Shown here piece by piece: positions 1,588-7,241 of a stretch of DNA of 64,000 bases. The notes below the pieces were generated by a model. The model did no database searches, was not told the DNA's origin, and saw nothing but the letters and a program-made list of their open reading frames with translations. How positions within the stretch are numbered: the stretch's first letter is position 1; every line of letters begins with the position of its first letter. The stretch spans positions 7,606 to 71,605 of the forward strand of contig JALVYB010000098.1 of NCBI GenBank assembly GCA_027038175.1. The letters run 5' to 3'. This DNA is from a candidate division WOR-3 bacterium (GTDB lineage Bacteria > Hydrothermota > Hydrothermia > UBA1063 > CAJXJZ01). The translations under genes and the position numbers were made by a program.

Positions 1588-2086
1588 TGAAGTATCTCTT
1601 GTTGCAGTCGCCAGAATAATAAAACCTTTTGGGCTGAGAGGTGAGGTTAAGCTTCACCTCTTAGCCGATTTAAATGACTTCCTGACTTATCCCGAATTTT
1701 TTATACGAGAGAAATTTTTCTACAAAAGGCTTGTCCTCGTTAACCTCCGTTCACGTGGCACGGTAGCACTTTTTGAAGGATATGCCTCAAGAGACGATGC
1801 AGAGTCTCTGAGGGGCAGAACTCTTTACGTGAAAGAGGAACACCTTGTTGAAAAAAACAGAGTGGATGAGTTCTACCCTTTTGAACTTGAGGGATTGGAG
1901 GTGGTTTTCAAAGAAAATATTCTGGGTATTGTGAGTAGAATGCTTGATTTTAATGGCAGATGGTACATAGAGGTTTCCGGGGAAAAGGATATACTTATAC
2001 CCTTTGTAAAACCTCTTGTAAACAGAGTTGACTGGGAAAACAAAAAAATATTTGTAGATTTACCAGAGGGCTATCTTGAATTATGA
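1580..2086 (+). CDS. rimM: 16S rRNA processing protein RimM
   Basis: 168 aa with an N-terminal [18 protein letters not shown] motif and a PRC barrel. The TTG start overlaps the stop of the KH gene. Matches the conserved rpsP-KH-rimM-trmD order. Confidence 0.85.
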
Positions 2087-2808
2087 AAATTACTGTTATC
2101 ACCCTGTTCCCGGAGATGTTTCGGGGCGTTTTTGAATTTGGGCCTGTAAAAATAGCGAGAGAGAAAGGGCTTGTTGATATAAATTTTTTAAATCTCAAGG
2201 ACTTTGCGGAAACTCCAAAGGACGTAGACGATTATCCCTATGGCGGTGGGGCAGGAATGGTTATTAAGCCAGAGCCTATAAAAAAATCTCTTGTGGCTGC
2301 CGGGGAGGGTGTTAGAGTACTTACAACTCCGAAAGGCCGGCCGTTTACTCAGGAGATAGCCAACACCTTATCTAAAGAAGATCATCTCATCATATTCTGT
2401 GGCAGGTATAAGGGTATTGACGAGAGAGTGAGAGATATGTTCGATTATGAGATTTCAATAGGCGATTATGTGCTATCTGGAGGGGAAATTCCAGCGATGG
2501 TTATTGTTGATTCTGTTGTAAGGCTCCTTCCCGGAGCGACTTCTGATGTAACCTCTGTGTTGACTGACTCTTATCAAAGCGGAATACTATCAGAACCTCA
2601 ATATACACGACCTCGTGTATTTGAGGGAAAAGAGGTTCCTGAGGTTTTATTATCCGGGAATCATAAGGCAATAGAGCGTTTTAGAAGAAAAGAGGCGCTT
2701 AGAACGACACTGTTAAAGCGACCGGACCTTTTGTTTAAAGTCAAACTTAGTAATGAAGATTTGCGTCTAATTGTTGAAATTTTGAAAGAGGGCGGTAAAG
2801 ATAGATAA
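2083..2808 (+). CDS. trmD: tRNA (guanine37-N1)-methyltransferase
   Basis: 241 aa. [13 protein letters not shown]..., a GGGAGMV motif and an SPOUT fold. 4-bp overlap with rimM. Confidence 0.9.
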   Translation: MKITVITLFPEMFRGVFEFGPVKIAREKGLVDINFLNLKDFAETPKDVDDYPYGGGAGMVIKPEPIKKSLVAAGEGVRVLTTPKGRPFTQEIANTLSKEDHLIIFCGRYKGIDERVRDMFDYEISIGDYVLSGGEIPAMVIVDSVVRLLPGATSDVTSVLTDSYQSGILSEPQYTRPRVFEGKEVPEVLLSGNHKAIERFRRKEALRTTLLKRPDLLFKVKLSNEDLRLIVEILKEGGKDR

Positions 2809-2841
2809 GAAGAATAGAAAAGTTACAATGGGGGATTTATA

Positions 2842-3581
2842 ATGATAGATTTGTTTTCAAGTGTTAATAATATGGTGGTAGTAGATAAAGAGAAAATTGA
2901 GAAATACGAAGTTAACGAAATTATAAACAAAGTGATTTTAGGCGATGCACTTCGAGTGCTAAAGAAGTTACCATCTAGTGTGGTAGATATGGTCTTTATG
3001 GTTCCACCCTATTTTCTACAACTTCCAAGTAAAAAACTGAGACGTTGGAAAGTCAAAACAGAAGTTGATGCCGTAAATGATGATTGGGATAAATTTGGTT
3101 CATTTGAAGAATATGACAATTTCATTAAAAATATCCTAACAGAGATTAAAAGAGTAATGAAACCCAATGCTACTATTTGGGTGATTGCGACATATCACAG
3201 TATTTTTAGGATTGGTAAAATTATGCAGGATTTAGGGTTTTGGATACTCAATGATGTTCATTGGGTAAAAACAAATCCAATGCTAAATTGGTTGGGAGTT
3301 AGATTTACAAATGCAACAGAGACTTTAATCTGGGCAGTAAAAGACAAAAAAGCGAAAAAATATACCTTCAATAAAGAATGGGCAAAGAAATTTGGTATAG
3401 GAAAAGTCGGAGCAAATTTTGGGTTCTGCCAATATGCAATGGTAAAGAGCGATTAAAAGATGAAAAAGGTAAAAAATTACACTCCACTCAGAAACCAATT
3501 GAGCTTTTGAAAAGAGTTATATTAACTTCTACAAAAGAGGAAGATGTTGTTTTGGATTTCGTAGCTGGCACTGGAGGTTAA
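2842..3581 (+). pseudogene. CcrM/HinfI-family beta-class N6-adenine DNA methyltransferase, disrupted by a frameshift and premature stop, with degenerate catalytic motifs
   Basis: Two overlapping ORFs (2842..3456 and 3378..3581) together align collinearly with CcrM-type MTases (DDWDKFGSFEEYDNF, KPNATIWVIATYHSIFRIG, DLGFWILNDVHWVKTNP, FTNATETLIWA, YTFN, then FWVLPICNGKERLKDEKGKKLHSTQKPIELL). A -1 shift maps to about 3414-3423 (AAATTTTGGG). Motif IV reads VPPY rather than DPPY. Motif I reads FVAGTGG rather than FxGSGTT, and TAA follows immediately, so motifs II and III are missing. Confidence 0.7.
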
Positions 3582-3584
3582 ACT

Positions 3585-4313
3585 ATGGTTACCAAGGTTG
3601 AAGCGATAAGAAAGGTGCTTGAAGAATTTGGTGGGAAGGCAACTTGGCAACAAATTTATGATAATATTGAGAAGTATTATCCTGCTGCTAAAGCAAGTAA
3701 AGCGTGGAAGGAGGGAATAAGAGGAGTATTATATAGAGAAATAAGAAAAGGAAAAAATTTTAAAAAAATTGGGATAGGAATTTTCGCATTAAAAGAATAC
3801 GAAGAAGAACCTATGCCTAAAAAAGAAGATAAGATTAGGATGCACCCATTTATGGAGGGTATTTGTATAGAATTAGGTAACCTGCACAATTTCTTAACAT
3901 ATACTCCTGATAAAACAAATATATTTAAAGAAGGAATACCACTAAATCAAATATCCACTCTAAATGAAATACCACCTTTCACATATCCTGAAATTATTAA
4001 AGATGTTAAAAGAATTGATGTTATTTGGTTTAACAAAGGAAAATTAATTTTTCCACAAAGAGTTTTTGAAGTTGTTCATAGTTTAAATACTTTGTCAGAG
4101 GCACTTAATAGGTGTTTGCAACTTCTTCCATTTAATGTAAAGTTTTATATAATAGCTCCAAAAGAATATTCAAAAAAGTATTATTCAAAAATAGAGAAAA
4201 AACCGTATGCAGAATTTAAAAATAGATTTTTCTTTATGGATTACGATAGGATAATTGCTTTTTATGAGTATGCGGTAAAGTATGATAAACTTAAAAGAGA
4301 GGTATTAGGATGA
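3585..4313 (+). CDS. hypothetical protein with HARE-HTH/Mrr_N-like winged-helix N-terminus; candidate restriction-endonuclease-like partner
   Basis: 242 aa. The N-terminal 70 aa (VEAIRKVLEEFGGKATWQQIYDNIEKYY...KKIGIGIFALKEY) resemble the wHTH domains found on restriction enzymes. The C-terminal region carries a possible degenerate nuclease core (RIDVIWF...FEVVHS). Start follows a GGAGG RBS. The 3' end overlaps the next ORF by ATGA. Confidence 0.4.
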   Translation: MVTKVEAIRKVLEEFGGKATWQQIYDNIEKYYPAAKASKAWKEGIRGVLYREIRKGKNFKKIGIGIFALKEYEEEPMPKKEDKIRMHPFMEGICIELGNLHNFLTYTPDKTNIFKEGIPLNQISTLNEIPPFTYPEIIKDVKRIDVIWFNKGKLIFPQRVFEVVHSLNTLSEALNRCLQLLPFNVKFYIIAPKEYSKKYYSKIEKKPYAEFKNRFFFMDYDRIIAFYEYAVKYDKLKREVLG

Positions 4314-5194
4314 TAGAATATAACAAAATTAAGGAAATTCTGAATAGGCATCATTGGAATATAAAATCTGATTTACTAAGAAAGATTTCAGAAATTGATT
4401 TCAAAGTTCCATATCGCTTTAGCACCCTATCTCAAAAAGAGGTCAAGTTATATAATAAAAATCAAATCCTCCAACATCTATTACAATCTCACGAGATAAG
4501 GTTTGGAGATGCAATGGAAGAACTAATCACAGAAATTATTGAAGATTTAGGATATAGGAATCTTCCTAAAAATATCAGAAATAGTGAGGGAGAAACACTT
4601 TCTATTGACCAGTATTTTACTAATGAAAACACATATTATTTCATTGAGCAAAAAGTAAGGGATGATCATGACTCTACAAAGAAAAGAGGTCAAATAAACA
4701 ATTTTGAGAAAAAATTAGAAGTCTTAAATAACTCCCATGGCGGGAATTTGATTGGTATTATGTATTTTATAGACCCAGATTTAAGGAAGAATCAGAATTT
4801 CTATGTTGAGAAACTTAGAGAATTTTCTGATTTTTATGGTGTGGAACTTCATCTATTTTATGGTCGTGAGTTGTTTGAGTATTTCGATAGCCCTCAAGTA
4901 TGGGACGATTTAATACAGTGGCTCAAAAGATGGAAAGATGAACTGCCGGAATTACCAGAAATAAATTTTGACGAAAATCCAGAAGAAAGCTTTGAAGAAA
5001 TTAAAGAATTAGAAATCAGATACTGGAGGAAAATCCTGCAAAACGAGAAGTTATGGGACGGAAATATAATGGAAATCTTGTTTAAAGAAGGTACTACTCT
5101 AACTTTAATGTTAGACTATTTCAGACAAAAAGAAGATAAACCACATGTTAATTTAGCAAGACTACTTGAGGATAAATTGAAGGAGTATTATTAG
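4310..5194 (+). CDS. PD-(D/E)xK nuclease, type II restriction-endonuclease-like
   Basis: 294 aa with a clear E...D-x13-E-Q-K arrangement (MEELITE ... SIDQYFTNENTYYFIEQK). Translationally coupled to the upstream ORF and adjacent to the dead MTase. Confidence 0.5.
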   Translation: MIEYNKIKEILNRHHWNIKSDLLRKISEIDFKVPYRFSTLSQKEVKLYNKNQILQHLLQSHEIRFGDAMEELITEIIEDLGYRNLPKNIRNSEGETLSIDQYFTNENTYYFIEQKVRDDHDSTKKRGQINNFEKKLEVLNNSHGGNLIGIMYFIDPDLRKNQNFYVEKLREFSDFYGVELHLFYGRELFEYFDSPQVWDDLIQWLKRWKDELPELPEINFDENPEESFEEIKELEIRYWRKILQNEKLWDGNIMEILFKEGTTLTLMLDYFRQKEDKPHVNLARLLEDKLKEYY

Positions 5195-5258
5195 TCTGGT
5201 GTGTAACTTTGCAGTACATCTATGATGGTATAAAATTTAAAACTAAAGGAGGCACAAA

Positions 5259-5633
5259 ATGAGCAACGTAATGAAGGAGATTGAAAAACAGTTTATGAGG
5301 GATGATATTCCGGATTTCGGGCCTGGTGATACCATAAAGGTGTGGCTCAGAATAAAGGAGCTGAAAGAAGATCCGAAAACGAGAAAAATAGTTGAGAAGG
5401 TGAGATTGCAGCCCTTCGAGGGTGTTGTCATAAGACGCAGGGGTGGAGGTTTAAACGAAACGTTTACGGTGAGAAAGGTGACACAGGGAATAGGTATTGA
5501 GAAGATTATCCCTATACATTCACAGGTTTATGAGAAGATTGACGTAATAAGAAGAGGTAAAGTCAGAAGAGCAAGGATATACTACCTCAGAGAGAGAAGG
5601 GGTAAGGCTGCAAGGATTAAAGAAAAAAGGTAA
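5259..5633 (+). CDS. rplS: 50S ribosomal protein L19
   Basis: 124 aa. The GDTIKVWLRIKE...RLQPFEGVVI...RKVTQGIGIEKIIPIHS sequence is canonical L19. An AAAGGAGG RBS precedes the start. Confidence 0.9.
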   Translation: MSNVMKEIEKQFMRDDIPDFGPGDTIKVWLRIKELKEDPKTRKIVEKVRLQPFEGVVIRRRGGGLNETFTVRKVTQGIGIEKIIPIHSQVYEKIDVIRRGKVRRARIYYLRERRGKAARIKEKR

Positions 5634-5658
5634 GCATATTCAGAAAAGATTTTTAAAA

Positions 5659-5686
5659 AAGCCCTGCATTTGCAGGGCTTTTTTAG
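5659..5686. terminator. bidirectional rho-independent terminator
   Basis: Stem GCCCTGC / GCAGGGC (5661-5678) with an ATTT loop, flanked by an A-run and a T6 run. Sits between convergent rplS (+) and the 5718..7241 (-) gene. Confidence 0.7.
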
Positions 5687-5717: not shown

Positions 5718-7241
5718 TTATCTTAGTTTTAAAAACTTACCCTTTAATGTTCCTTTTGCAGTATGTACCAGGGCAAAATAGAGTCCATTCTTTAAACCAT
5801 GTAGTTCTGTTCTCGCTTCCCCATTGTTAAATCTAACGACTTTGTGCATGATTTTTCTGCCGGATATATCCATAATATCAAGGTTGGCATATCCATTAAT
5901 AGTGCTGGAGACCATTCTCAAGATACCATGGTTCAAAGATAATGAAAGCGATGGTGTTATTTCTTCTGCTTTTTTGTTTTCTTTAACCTGTGTGTTGTAC
6001 ATATGATCTATGAAGAATTGAGTACTGTCATATATAAAGTATATGGTGACAAGATGGCTGAAATCGTTGTGCCACAGAACATATGGAATGGCATAGTCCT
6101 GCCAGTTTCTTATTTTGGGGTGGTAATAAGGGGACGTATTGAAAATGTATGTATAGGCACCGGAGTCAGAGACCTGGACAGGTGTGTTGTTACAGTAAAT
6201 ACTGTCTCCATCCGCAATCATCTCCTGATAGTATACGTTAACATATCCACCAACACTGGCTGTATATGCAATATTAAGTCCACCGTTTGAAATATAAGTA
6301 AACCATGGAACCATATCAACGTCGTAGATACCGTCGTAATCACCGTTATATGGGTAGTCTATGTGCTTTATTGTAACCCAGTTGTCTGAAGAATAATCAA
6401 TATACAGTCTGCCGCTGTCTATATATGCAATTGCCTCAAGGCCGTACAAACTGGCCGTCCTTACCTGTGCTTTCATACTTGTATTAATTGCCTGCAGTGA
6501 TACTGTCTCCACCAGGGTATCTCCCATTGTGTCTGTGAGAACGTTATAGTAGATTTTATTAACACCTGTAGATGTATCCTGATAGGTATATGCAAAGAGG
6601 AGTCTTACAGAATCTCCATAGTCATAGGAAGAGAGACTTTGAAGTTCCCTTATTTTAGGAGAGTTTGGTGAAAGAAGCCTTGAGTAGACTATTTTCCACG
6701 TGGAGCCAAAATCTGTAGAACGCAATACACTGTATCTCGCATCAGCACCATTTTTCCATCCAAGAGCAACCAGATAAAAATACGGTACATGGTTCCCATC
6801 TTTAGCAACTGTCATATAAGCGCATTGGACTGAATCAAGGTCATTAAAGGCATCTCCTCTATCTCCAACGCTATTAAATGGGTCATTAAGTGGTTTAACA
6901 ACGAATGAAAAATAATGACTACTTGTCCCAAGAGGGGTAAAGTAGTAGAGAGTATCAGCATAGTAAATGATGTTGATTGGTTGTGGATGGGAATTAAGAT
7001 TTGTGTCAAAAGTATTATCCAGATAATTCCAGGTTGTGCCATAGTCATTGGTATAAACCACACTTTTGTAGGCTACGTTATTATCATCGTAGTATTGCAT
7101 GACAACGTACATTTCTGAGTCGGATGGTACCACGAAGTCGTATGCTATTGGCAGTGAGTCGGGTCTGGTTATTACGTGTATGTCCCTGTTCCATGCCCAC
7201 AGCATCATGGGCAGGAGTACTCCCACGATCAGCCTCTTCAT
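5718..7241 (-). CDS. secreted protein with T9SS-type C-terminal sorting domain
   Basis: 507 aa with an N-terminal signal-like hydrophobic segment. The C-terminal ~75 aa (LDIMDISGRKI...LKNGLYFALVHTAKG...KFLKLR) match the Por-secretion-tail pattern shared with two other proteins in the window. Confidence 0.55.
   Translation of the reverse strand: MKRLIVGVLLPMMLWAWNRDIHVITRPDSLPIAYDFVVPSDSEMYVVMQYYDDNNVAYKSVVYTNDYGTTWNYLDNTFDTNLNSHPQPINIIYYADTLYYFTPLGTSSHYFSFVVKPLNDPFNSVGDRGDAFNDLDSVQCAYMTVAKDGNHVPYFYLVALGWKNGADARYSVLRSTDFGSTWKIVYSRLLSPNSPKIRELQSLSSYDYGDSVRLLFAYTYQDTSTGVNKIYYNVLTDTMGDTLVETVSLQAINTSMKAQVRTASLYGLEAIAYIDSGRLYIDYSSDNWVTIKHIDYPYNGDYDGIYDVDMVPWFTYISNGGLNIAYTASVGGYVNVYYQEMIADGDSIYCNNTPVQVSDSGAYTYIFNTSPYYHPKIRNWQDYAIPYVLWHNDFSHLVTIYFIYDSTQFFIDHMYNTQVKENKKAEEITPSLSLSLNHGILRMVSSTINGYANLDIMDISGRKIMHKVVRFNNGEARTELHGLKNGLYFALVHTAKGTLKGKFLKLR

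Follow-up and report, generated by a model that had tools for sequence, protein, structure and literature searches.

In the genome of a candidate division WOR-3 bacterium, the trmD and rplS genes, which overlap in the closest relatives, are held apart by a 2,452-bp insert. This insert is probably a horizontally acquired and partly decayed restriction-modification (R-M) cassette of the HinfI/HpyAIV (GANTC) type, which carries an additional nuclease gene, here called X, and which landed in the trmD/rplS overlap. The stretch analysed (the window) comprises 64,000 nucleotides of GenBank assembly GCA_027038175.1 (contig JALVYB010000098.1, positions 7,606 to 71,605, forward strand) and was assigned to WOR-3 by a genome scan with TrmD; all coordinates below are those of the window unless a locus is named. 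At the level of nucleotide sequence, the methylase of the cassette is dead, as the result of a 3' deletion, a frameshift and the replacement of its catalytic DPPY by VPPY, while both X and the endonuclease, R, are intact. We hold the insertion and the identities of its genes with high confidence, and the predicted current function of X and R with low to moderate confidence.

Insertion into the trmD/rplS overlap

About 2.45 kb of DNA with four open reading frames (ORFs) separates trmD (2083–2808, + strand, 241 aa; Pfam tRNA_m1G_MT, 8.6e-54) from rplS (5259–5633, + strand, 124 aa, intact; Pfam Ribosomal_L19, 1.3e-40). The original prediction of a compositionally foreign insertion at this site was borne out by GC content, by GC content at third codon positions (GC3) and by the empty sites of the closest relatives. 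GC content is 0.311 in 2809–5258, compared with 0.419 in trmD, 0.416 in rplS and 0.391 in the window as a whole, so that the roughly 30% predicted for the insert was accurate, while the 45% given for trmD was a little high (42% computed). The region is far from uniform, being the GC minimum among all 2,450-bp stretches of the 64 kb (mean 0.390, s.d. 0.020; about −3.9 s.d.), and the GC3 of the inserted genes (0.20–0.29) lies below that of their neighbours (0.36–0.46).

To define the ends of the insert, we used relatives with an empty site. The three closest WOR-3 genomes (L002, L003 and L004, with TrmD proteins 85, 77 and 74% identical to that of the window) have no insert, and their trmD genes encode a protein of 246 aa with the C-terminus ...ILKEAQNEQRNEGD, the last 26 nt of the gene overlapping the start of rplS. 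A 246-aa TrmD is also found in the 90%-identity cluster of the window's own TrmD, on metagenome contig L171 from sample ERZ23495249, which is insert-free and has the same 26-nt overlap. L171 aligns to the window by BLAST in two segments, one 95.7% identical to 1521–2791 (rimM–trmD) and one 89.3% identical to 5244–5449, both of which include the same 9 nt of L171, TAAAGGAGG (L171 1263–1271). Since the two segments overlap by these 9 nt, the inserted DNA is 2792–5243 (in operon orientation, + strand; GC about 0.31). Four relatives therefore lack the genes found between trmD and rplS in the window.

The insert is flanked by two copies of the 9-bp target. The left copy, TGAAAGAGG (2783–2791; from the BLAST overlap and the alignments), differs from TAAAGGAGG at two positions, both of them synonymous in trmD, and the right copy, TAAAGGAGG (5244–5252), is the Shine-Dalgarno sequence of rplS. 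To the right of it a relic of the old trmD tail survives (5253–5284), because this is also rplS sequence, although it now serves only as the 5' sequence of rplS. The trmD gene now ends five insert-encoded codons past the junction (GGC GGT AAA GAT AGA TAA, 2791–2808), the insert having supplied the codons that replace the ancestral 10-codon tail, AQNEQRNEGD. Taken together, these data show an insertion into the 26-nt trmD/rplS overlap with a 9-bp duplication of TAAAGGAGG, which kept trmD in frame and slightly shorter, and left rplS with its Shine-Dalgarno sequence and start codon.

R-M units are known to duplicate their target on insertion, the repeat covering a start or stop site, and in some cases they enter operon-like clusters (Furuta, Abe and Kobayashi 2010, PMC2853133); an R-M insertion in an operon is a further instance of this known kind. 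As in those cases, a foreign unit without a mobility gene sits in an operon, with a repeat at the start/stop region and with the target genes intact. The window differs in three ways: its insert went into the overlap of two essential genes of the translation apparatus, the duplication covers only 9 bp and is imperfect, and the cassette either came without a working methylase or was left without one.

Mismatches between the window and L171 cluster in two patches, 2321–2420 (14 in 100 nt) and 2721–2791 (19 in 71 nt), compared with 0–5 per 100 nt in the rest of rimM–trmD; this suggests mosaic recombination tracts. The last 71 nt left of the junction could be such an imported tract or could reflect fast evolution of the TrmD tail.

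The original prediction had also called the trmD-rplS linkage near-universal, which holds for the overlapping genes of the closest relatives and is otherwise overstated. When 80 diverse genomes were fetched with TrmD, the gap between the two genes was at most 130 nt in only 9 loci, 0.47–1 kb in about 35 and more than 1.1 kb in 8, and no rplS was found in the downstream sequence examined at 28 loci (7 kb in 13 of these, less than 500 nt in four). At the one locus inspected from the 0.47–1 kb class, L052 from Desulfobacterales, a gene of about 190 aa lies between trmD and rplS (L052 7871–8446). Gaps similar in size to that of L052 were seen at loci from Clostridia, Halanaerobiales and other Desulfobacterales, and loci from Selenomonas and Peptococcaceae had no rplS within 7 kb downstream of trmD; L005–L008 and L023 are among the loci of these two groups.

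Turning to expression, the inserted genes are co-oriented with the operon, which runs on the + strand from rpsP (1082–1333) through a KhpA-type KH gene (1348–1587) and rimM (1580–2086) to trmD. A promoter-like site upstream of rpsP matches the consensus at 10 of 12 positions, and every inserted gene has a Shine-Dalgarno sequence. A terminator scan found no terminator-like site within 2792–5243. The only strong one is an intrinsic terminator-like hairpin after rplS (5653–5686, + strand; a 15-pair stem and a T run), probably the end of the rpsP...rplS transcription unit. Given the co-orientation and the lack of a terminator, read-through that starts in the rpsP promoter region most likely accounts for transcription of the insert genes and rplS. 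Transcriptional insulation, which had been raised as one condition under which the insert might be tolerated, was not borne out by the scan, and neither were a regained promoter and a regained ribosome-binding site for rplS. The promoter-like hexamers TTTGCA-17-TAAAAT (5208–5236, + strand) match the consensus at 9 of 12 positions, which occurs at chance frequency in AT-rich DNA (19 such sites in 4.9 kb, compared with 14.7 ± 3.8 in shuffles); another apparent site, 2815–2843, overlaps the methylase start codon. The ribosome-binding site, AAGGAGG, is ancestral, lying inside the 3' end of trmD in the relatives, and was kept because the target TAAAGGAGG is present at both sides of the insert.

An Rfam scan of the whole 64 kb at gathering thresholds found no RNA family, ruling out a structured RNA or rplS leader among the families covered. 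Directly after the rplS terminator a 507-aa protein is encoded on the opposite strand (5718–7241), with a faint T9SS Por_Secre_tail signal; relative L003 has it in the same position.

Gene content and mosaic structure of the cassette

The insert had been described as three genes, which fits X and the endonuclease; the methylase is a pseudogene spread over two ORFs. The first (2842–3456, + strand, 204 aa) matches the NCBIfam CcrM model at 2.6e-61 with 207 bits, where the cutoff is 830, over profile positions 3–155 of 350, and Pfam N6_N4_Mtase over 1–119 of 221. The second, in another frame (3378–3581, + strand), matches positions 163–217 of the same 350-position CcrM profile with 74 bits. By these matches, the two ORFs derive from a single beta-class N6-adenine methylase gene, a member of the CcrM/HinfI family, in which we found neither the complete motif set nor an above-cutoff family score. 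Lesions were mapped by alignment to the intact genes of loci L094, L091 and L172. A 1-nt deletion near 3417/3418 (GTT to TT) shifts the frame; motif IV reads VPPY (3001–3012) in place of the catalytic DPPY, a change of D to V seen relative to both L172 and L175; a P to F substitution adjoins motif I; and the gene stops at motif I itself (DFVAGTGG, stop codon 3579–3581; junction at about 3575/3576). Compared with an L172-type methylase about 80 codons of the 3' end are missing, and compared with the short form in L094, 57 codons (171 nt). The 64-kb window holds no other methylase of the beta or D12 class, other classes having been screened by motif patterns only.

Downstream, R (4310–5194, + strand, 294 aa) starts at an overlap with the X stop codon (ATGA) and is a type II restriction endonuclease of the HpyAIV/HinfI family. 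It matches the NCBI equivalog NF045832 over its full length (8e-61; 205.8 bits, cutoff 160), as well as PADLOC REase_II (4.2e-69) and PF09520, and in an alignment it retains the D...EQK motif and all conserved blocks. A search for sequence relatives of R with a solved structure found none. HinfI, HpyAIV and CcrM recognise GANTC, and family membership suggests that R would do the same.

Of 1577 homologues of R, the closest (74% and 65% identical) belong to canonical two-gene cassettes without X, in L172/L173 and in Thermosipho atlanticus (L175), where a methylase of 325–326 aa is followed by an overlapping endonuclease gene. The window cassette resembles these HinfI/HpyAIV systems in that R passes the HpyAIV equivalog cutoff, its methylase fragments match CcrM/HinfI best, and its nearest relatives are cassettes of this kind. 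It differs from them in that its methylase has been inactivated three times over, leaving no linked functional methylase, in that a 242-aa nuclease gene sits in the middle, and in that the endonuclease N-terminus has been replaced. In the X-less canonical cassette that is closest to that of the window, a 65-aa phage-integrase-like fragment with a weak Pfam hit lies just upstream of the methylase gene (L173 59–256).

Alignment to L172 reveals where the replacement begins and ends. Window 2992–3557 is 85–96% identical at the nucleotide level to the L172 methylase gene, and window 4460–5059 is 88–95% identical to the L172 endonuclease gene. The segment in between (3558–4459, comprising the junction, X and the first ~50 codons of R) has no counterpart in L172 and matches X-bearing cassettes. 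R is therefore of the X-linked type in codons 1 to ~50 and of the L172 type in its core, and the right crossover falls within the conserved block ILQHLLQSHEIRFGDA. These nucleotide alignments show the cassette to be a mosaic of an L172-type core and an X-linked segment. As for the order of events, we infer that an X module (Shine-Dalgarno sequence, X and the first ~50 endonuclease codons) would have recombined into a canonical L172-type two-gene cassette through crossovers in conserved coding blocks, and that this recombination would have deleted the 3' end of the methylase. A simple insertion of X into the methylase gene was rejected, as the sequence downstream of X retains nothing of the methylase 3' end; the pattern of X-methylase junctions fits deletion or replacement.

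The timing of the methylase's death was assessed by a branch test with L175 as outgroup. In the methylase, the window branch carries 4 replacement and 13 silent changes and the L172 branch 1 and 15, and two of the four window-branch replacements fall in motifs IV and I. This implies that the methylase was constrained until recently and that its death is recent, so that a long-dead neutral pseudogene can be rejected. The low pN/pS between methylase copies (0.05–0.1) reflects divergence that accumulated in intact ancestors, together with module shuffling. In the endonuclease core the ratio of replacement to silent changes (N/S) is 5/8 on the window branch and 7/11 on the L172 branch, and this likeness indicates no relaxation of the endonuclease as yet.

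Protein X and its occurrence in other genomes

X (3585–4313, + strand, 242 aa; Shine-Dalgarno sequence GGAGG at 3573–3577) is predicted to consist of an N-terminal winged helix and a C-terminal PD-(D/E)XK nuclease domain. Its AlphaFold model (pLDDT 92) has this arrangement. The N-terminal part has a weak HARE-HTH match (predictions for HARE-HTH domains were reportedly made by Aravind and Iyer in 2012), and the C-terminal part carries the precomputed Pfam domain PF27126 (NmeDI_C), as do most X homologues, and matches PADLOC PDLC03534 (1.6e-4; residues 138–228, profile 235–325 of 351). The best structural match of the nuclease domain is the catalytic small subunit of R.BspD6I (PDB 2p14; sequence identity 8%), along with FokI-type cleavage domains. 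All family-invariant residues are kept (H87, E96, D145, E162, R176 and Q179). In an exhaustive profile search each domain of X was also found paired with other partner domains, and proteins of 370–420 aa share only the C-terminal domain with it.

With its pairing of a winged helix and a nuclease domain, X is a putative combination of reader and cutter, comparable to type IIS and type IV enzymes: the winged helix would read DNA or a modification of it and the FokI/NmeDI-like domain would cut. Judging by its fold, its modular make-up and how often it occurs alone, X most likely works as a nuclease in its own right, with no need of a methylase, in the manner of a type IV or type IIS enzyme. On the same grounds, X seems to be what is really being maintained and spread.

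Several characterised enzymes share parts of this architecture. R.NmeDI cleaves at a distance on both sides of its recognition site (PMC2095814), and its C-terminal domain is homologous to that of X (PF27126). X possesses this cleavage domain and lacks the N-terminal recognition part and the length of about 350 aa, being a protein of 242 aa with a different N-terminal domain where NmeDI has 351 aa. The small subunit of R.BspD6I/BstNBI (PDB 2p14; PMC3017599) is the closest structural match, but X in the window adjoins a HinfI-family enzyme and not an AlwI-family nickase. Modification-dependent type IV activity has been described for winged-helix fusion endonucleases such as DpnI, HhiV4I and FcyTI (Helbrecht et al. 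2024, PMC11037411). Like them, X has a winged helix, the putative reader, fused to a nuclease domain; unlike them, its winged helix is of the HARE-HTH/H1/forkhead type and not of the DpnI type. The surroundings of X are mixed: often no methylase lies nearby, but X is also often found inside R-M operons, in L091/L094 and L142 beside an apparently intact GANTC methylase. The presence of these intact-looking methylases also weakens the idea of X as a nuclease that depends on methylated GANTC and opposes the methylase.

Homologues of X with a length of about 240 aa number at least 396; the 120 with the highest scores are 51–100% identical to it and come from bacteria and archaea. Genomic contexts, read from 80 metagenome loci and further look-ups, were of four kinds. 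In the first, X lies between a beta-class methylase and a HinfI-family endonuclease. In the intact versions of this arrangement (L094 and L091) the methylase stop codon overlaps the X start. In the usual state the methylase is 3'-truncated, at residues ~44, 70, 80–86, 121, 157–162, 178, 234 or 245. For the residue-245, -234 and -70 classes, where the junction was aligned or read, the cut reaches the X start, and in several other classes 30–185 nt lie between the last methylase match and X; the two deletion junctions that were aligned have microhomology at GGAG, with the Shine-Dalgarno sequence of X kept. In the second arrangement, X lies between a D12-class methylase and an AlwI-family endonuclease; all 11 methylases are truncated (11/11), the truncations ending in at least six different places, while 8 of the endonucleases have their full length. 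The third consists of a TdeIII/HinfI-family endonuclease, often 3'-truncated, followed by X and by the C-terminal half only of a beta-class methylase. In the fourth, X stands alone among housekeeping genes, as it does in about half of the 80 loci. Overall, where X is nested beside adenine methylases these are usually broken (intact in L091/L094 and L142), the neighbouring genes are repeatedly truncated on the side that faces X, and the junctions around X are tight, at −16 to +4 nt.

At nine loci (L108, 2086–2322; also L095–L097, L099–L102 and L112) a conserved ORF of 71–78 aa lies 24–41 nt downstream of X; it has no Pfam match, and in L095–L097 it stands in place of the 5' half of the endonuclease gene. 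In L120 (Ga0209211_10015738, ~4488–5210), parts of two R-M operon types are joined around X, which is preceded by a fragment of a beta-class methylase and followed by a fragment of an AlwI-family endonuclease.

Among the X-bearing loci we found none in which methylase and endonuclease are both verifiably intact. Two loci combine an intact-looking methylase with an endonuclease gene that could be read, and in both the endonuclease is broken: in L091 it has a nonsense codon, and in L142 it has no start codon and is separated from X by an insertion of about 1.4 kb (1800–3280). L124 has an in-frame deletion in its methylase and a stop codon in its endonuclease. The combination of a dead methylase with a full-length endonuclease occurs in the window, L093, L098, L082/L117 and L138/L140. 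The L142 insertion encodes two ORFs, one of them with an HTH-like N-terminus.

X evolves under purifying selection (dN/dS 0.05–0.19), the endonucleases linked to it have a dN/dS of ~0.1, and the trees of methylase and X disagree. A plasmid or phage vector was rejected, since X is absent from the phage collection and the plasmid collection yielded a single hit, at 22% identity, on a Halobacterium megaplasmid.

Tolerance of the endonuclease and the role of X

In the absence of its methylase a type II endonuclease is regarded as lethal, and a decaying R-M system is expected to lose the endonuclease first. Yet the window has kept R and lost the methylase. R is probably tolerated for one of several reasons: GANTC may be methylated by the product of a gene elsewhere in the genome; the chimeric enzyme may be inactive, latent or not freely active; X may control or retarget it; or the death of the methylase may be too recent for the endonuclease to have decayed, in combination with one of the others. 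Once in place, the cassette would be sheltered from imprecise deletion by its position between two essential genes. For solitary type II endonuclease genes, the published explanations are a distant methylase, a gene fragment, or an unknown cause, and for 57 of 272 of them a methylase elsewhere in the genome has been proposed (Ershova et al. 2012, PMC3488263). R resembles these genes in being full length without a linked functional methylase, so that all the published explanations apply, and it differs from them in that the dead methylase is still attached and that R is coupled to a second nuclease gene, in an arrangement that recurs.

A number of observations weigh against the reading of the insert as a decayed R-M cassette that entered the overlap by target duplication. 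The duplication is imperfect, its copies matching at 7 of 9 positions, and purine-rich, and the 9-bp repeat could represent microhomology instead of a staggered cut. The insert encodes neither a transposase nor an integrase, and its terminal inverted repeats are not significant, the best pair near the ends (20 nt, 75%) being one of 107 found and thus at chance level. These findings speak against a transposon, even though a duplication of the target is present. X has no sequence match in the PDB and no relation to the characterised winged-helix fusion enzymes, and its top structural hits do not include winged helices of the DpnI type. The proposed read-through transcription is argued from the lack of terminator-like sites. 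The window contains 180 GANTC sites, an unremarkable observed/expected ratio of 0.92, and host avoidance of GANTC was rejected. Finally, a cell with an intact GANTC endonuclease and no methylase would not be expected to survive, so something essential has gone unseen.

What X contributes is a separate matter, on which several explanations compete. Tentatively, X and the endonuclease may form a two-nuclease unit without need of a methylase, in which the X module would alter the control of the endonuclease, which might be held inactive, retargeted or made modification-dependent, the methylase then becoming dispensable and being lost. The lack of any X-bearing locus with both methylase and endonuclease verifiably intact speaks for such a unit, as do the instances of a dead methylase beside a full-length endonuclease listed above and the truncation of every methylase in the D12-X-AlwI class next to 8 full-length endonucleases. 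Further pointers are the joint transfer of X and the endonuclease N-terminus in the window mosaic, the overlap of the X stop with the endonuclease start, the constraint on X-linked endonucleases, and the structural match of X to the R.BspD6I small subunit, given that the large subunit of that heterodimer is of the AlwI family. Set against this, solitary X is strongly conserved, so that an endonuclease partner is not needed; the loci sampled are few and were selected for containing X; and with a methylase that died recently, the intact endonuclease of the window may reflect too little time for decay. A possible extension, to which we give similarly low credence, is that X is an undescribed mobile module that enters at least three kinds of R-M operon, brings the endonuclease N-terminus with it and yields a methylase-less two-nuclease unit. 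Such a conversion would explain the reversed order of decay, with the methylase lost and the endonuclease kept.

Doubtful is the notion that X is a selfish gene, akin to a homing endonuclease, which would spread among R-M cassettes through recombination in the conserved coding sequence at its flanks and damage its neighbours as a by-product, without benefit to the host. Free-standing homing endonuclease genes occur between conserved genes of T-even phages. X is similar in being wedged tightly between conserved genes and in its apparent movement between diverged alleles via recombination in flanking coding sequence, and it differs in its fold family and in its setting, the R-M operons of cellular genomes. 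The mosaic with co-transferred flanks and the discordant trees would fit homing; no cleavage target is known. Its neighbours are truncated on the X side, on both sides of X and in three operon types, whichever gene lies upstream; the context in L120 is chimeric; the methylase and X phylogenies disagree; crossovers of the window mosaic lie in conserved blocks; X is far more conserved than its flanks (50–86% identity across bacteria and archaea); and its gene junctions are tight. However, the overlap of methylase stop and X start in the intact L094 and L091 looks co-adapted and not parasitic, long-term purifying selection on solitary copies suggests usefulness to the host, and the deletions that keep the Shine-Dalgarno sequence of X are equally well explained by selection for its expression.

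It is unlikely that the insert is dead cargo, with all three genes inert, the endonuclease through missense changes or through its chimeric N-terminus, and persisting since deletions would risk damage to trmD or rplS. In favour of this reading, there is no doubt that the methylase is dead, the endonuclease is chimeric, the recent death of the methylase has left little time for stop codons to appear in the endonuclease, and GANTC is not avoided in the host. But X and R keep all family-invariant residues, their 242- and 294-codon ORFs remain full length in DNA of 29–31% GC, and N/S in the endonuclease core equals that of the canonical cassette branch. An assembly chimera, or an ancestral gene order lost in the relatives, is very improbable: the genome is metagenome-assembled and the insert is seen in only one population, but an independent Logan assembly of run SRR18691003 is 100% identical across 10.8 kb, the methylase frameshift included, both junctions are clean, showing the 9-bp duplication and leaving the reading frames intact, the base composition is foreign, and the same precise empty site in four relatives could not have been recreated by independent loss.

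In light of these considerations, we favour a horizontally acquired HinfI/HpyAIV-type cassette with X. What is new here is a recombinant cassette that combines a dead methylase with X and an intact endonuclease, along with the repeated occurrence of X inside R-M operons and a decay that has run in the reverse order. The locus provides a clean natural example of a selfish defence cassette that lands in the gene overlap of an essential, highly expressed operon, where it keeps both host genes intact and would borrow their transcription. The wider pattern weighs more: X, conserved and widely spread by horizontal transfer, is repeatedly found in R-M operons with a destroyed methylase and an intact endonuclease. 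If there are no methylases elsewhere in these genomes, this would point to a novel means by which restriction enzymes are controlled or retargeted, and also to elements of a new class, which parasitise or remodel R-M systems.

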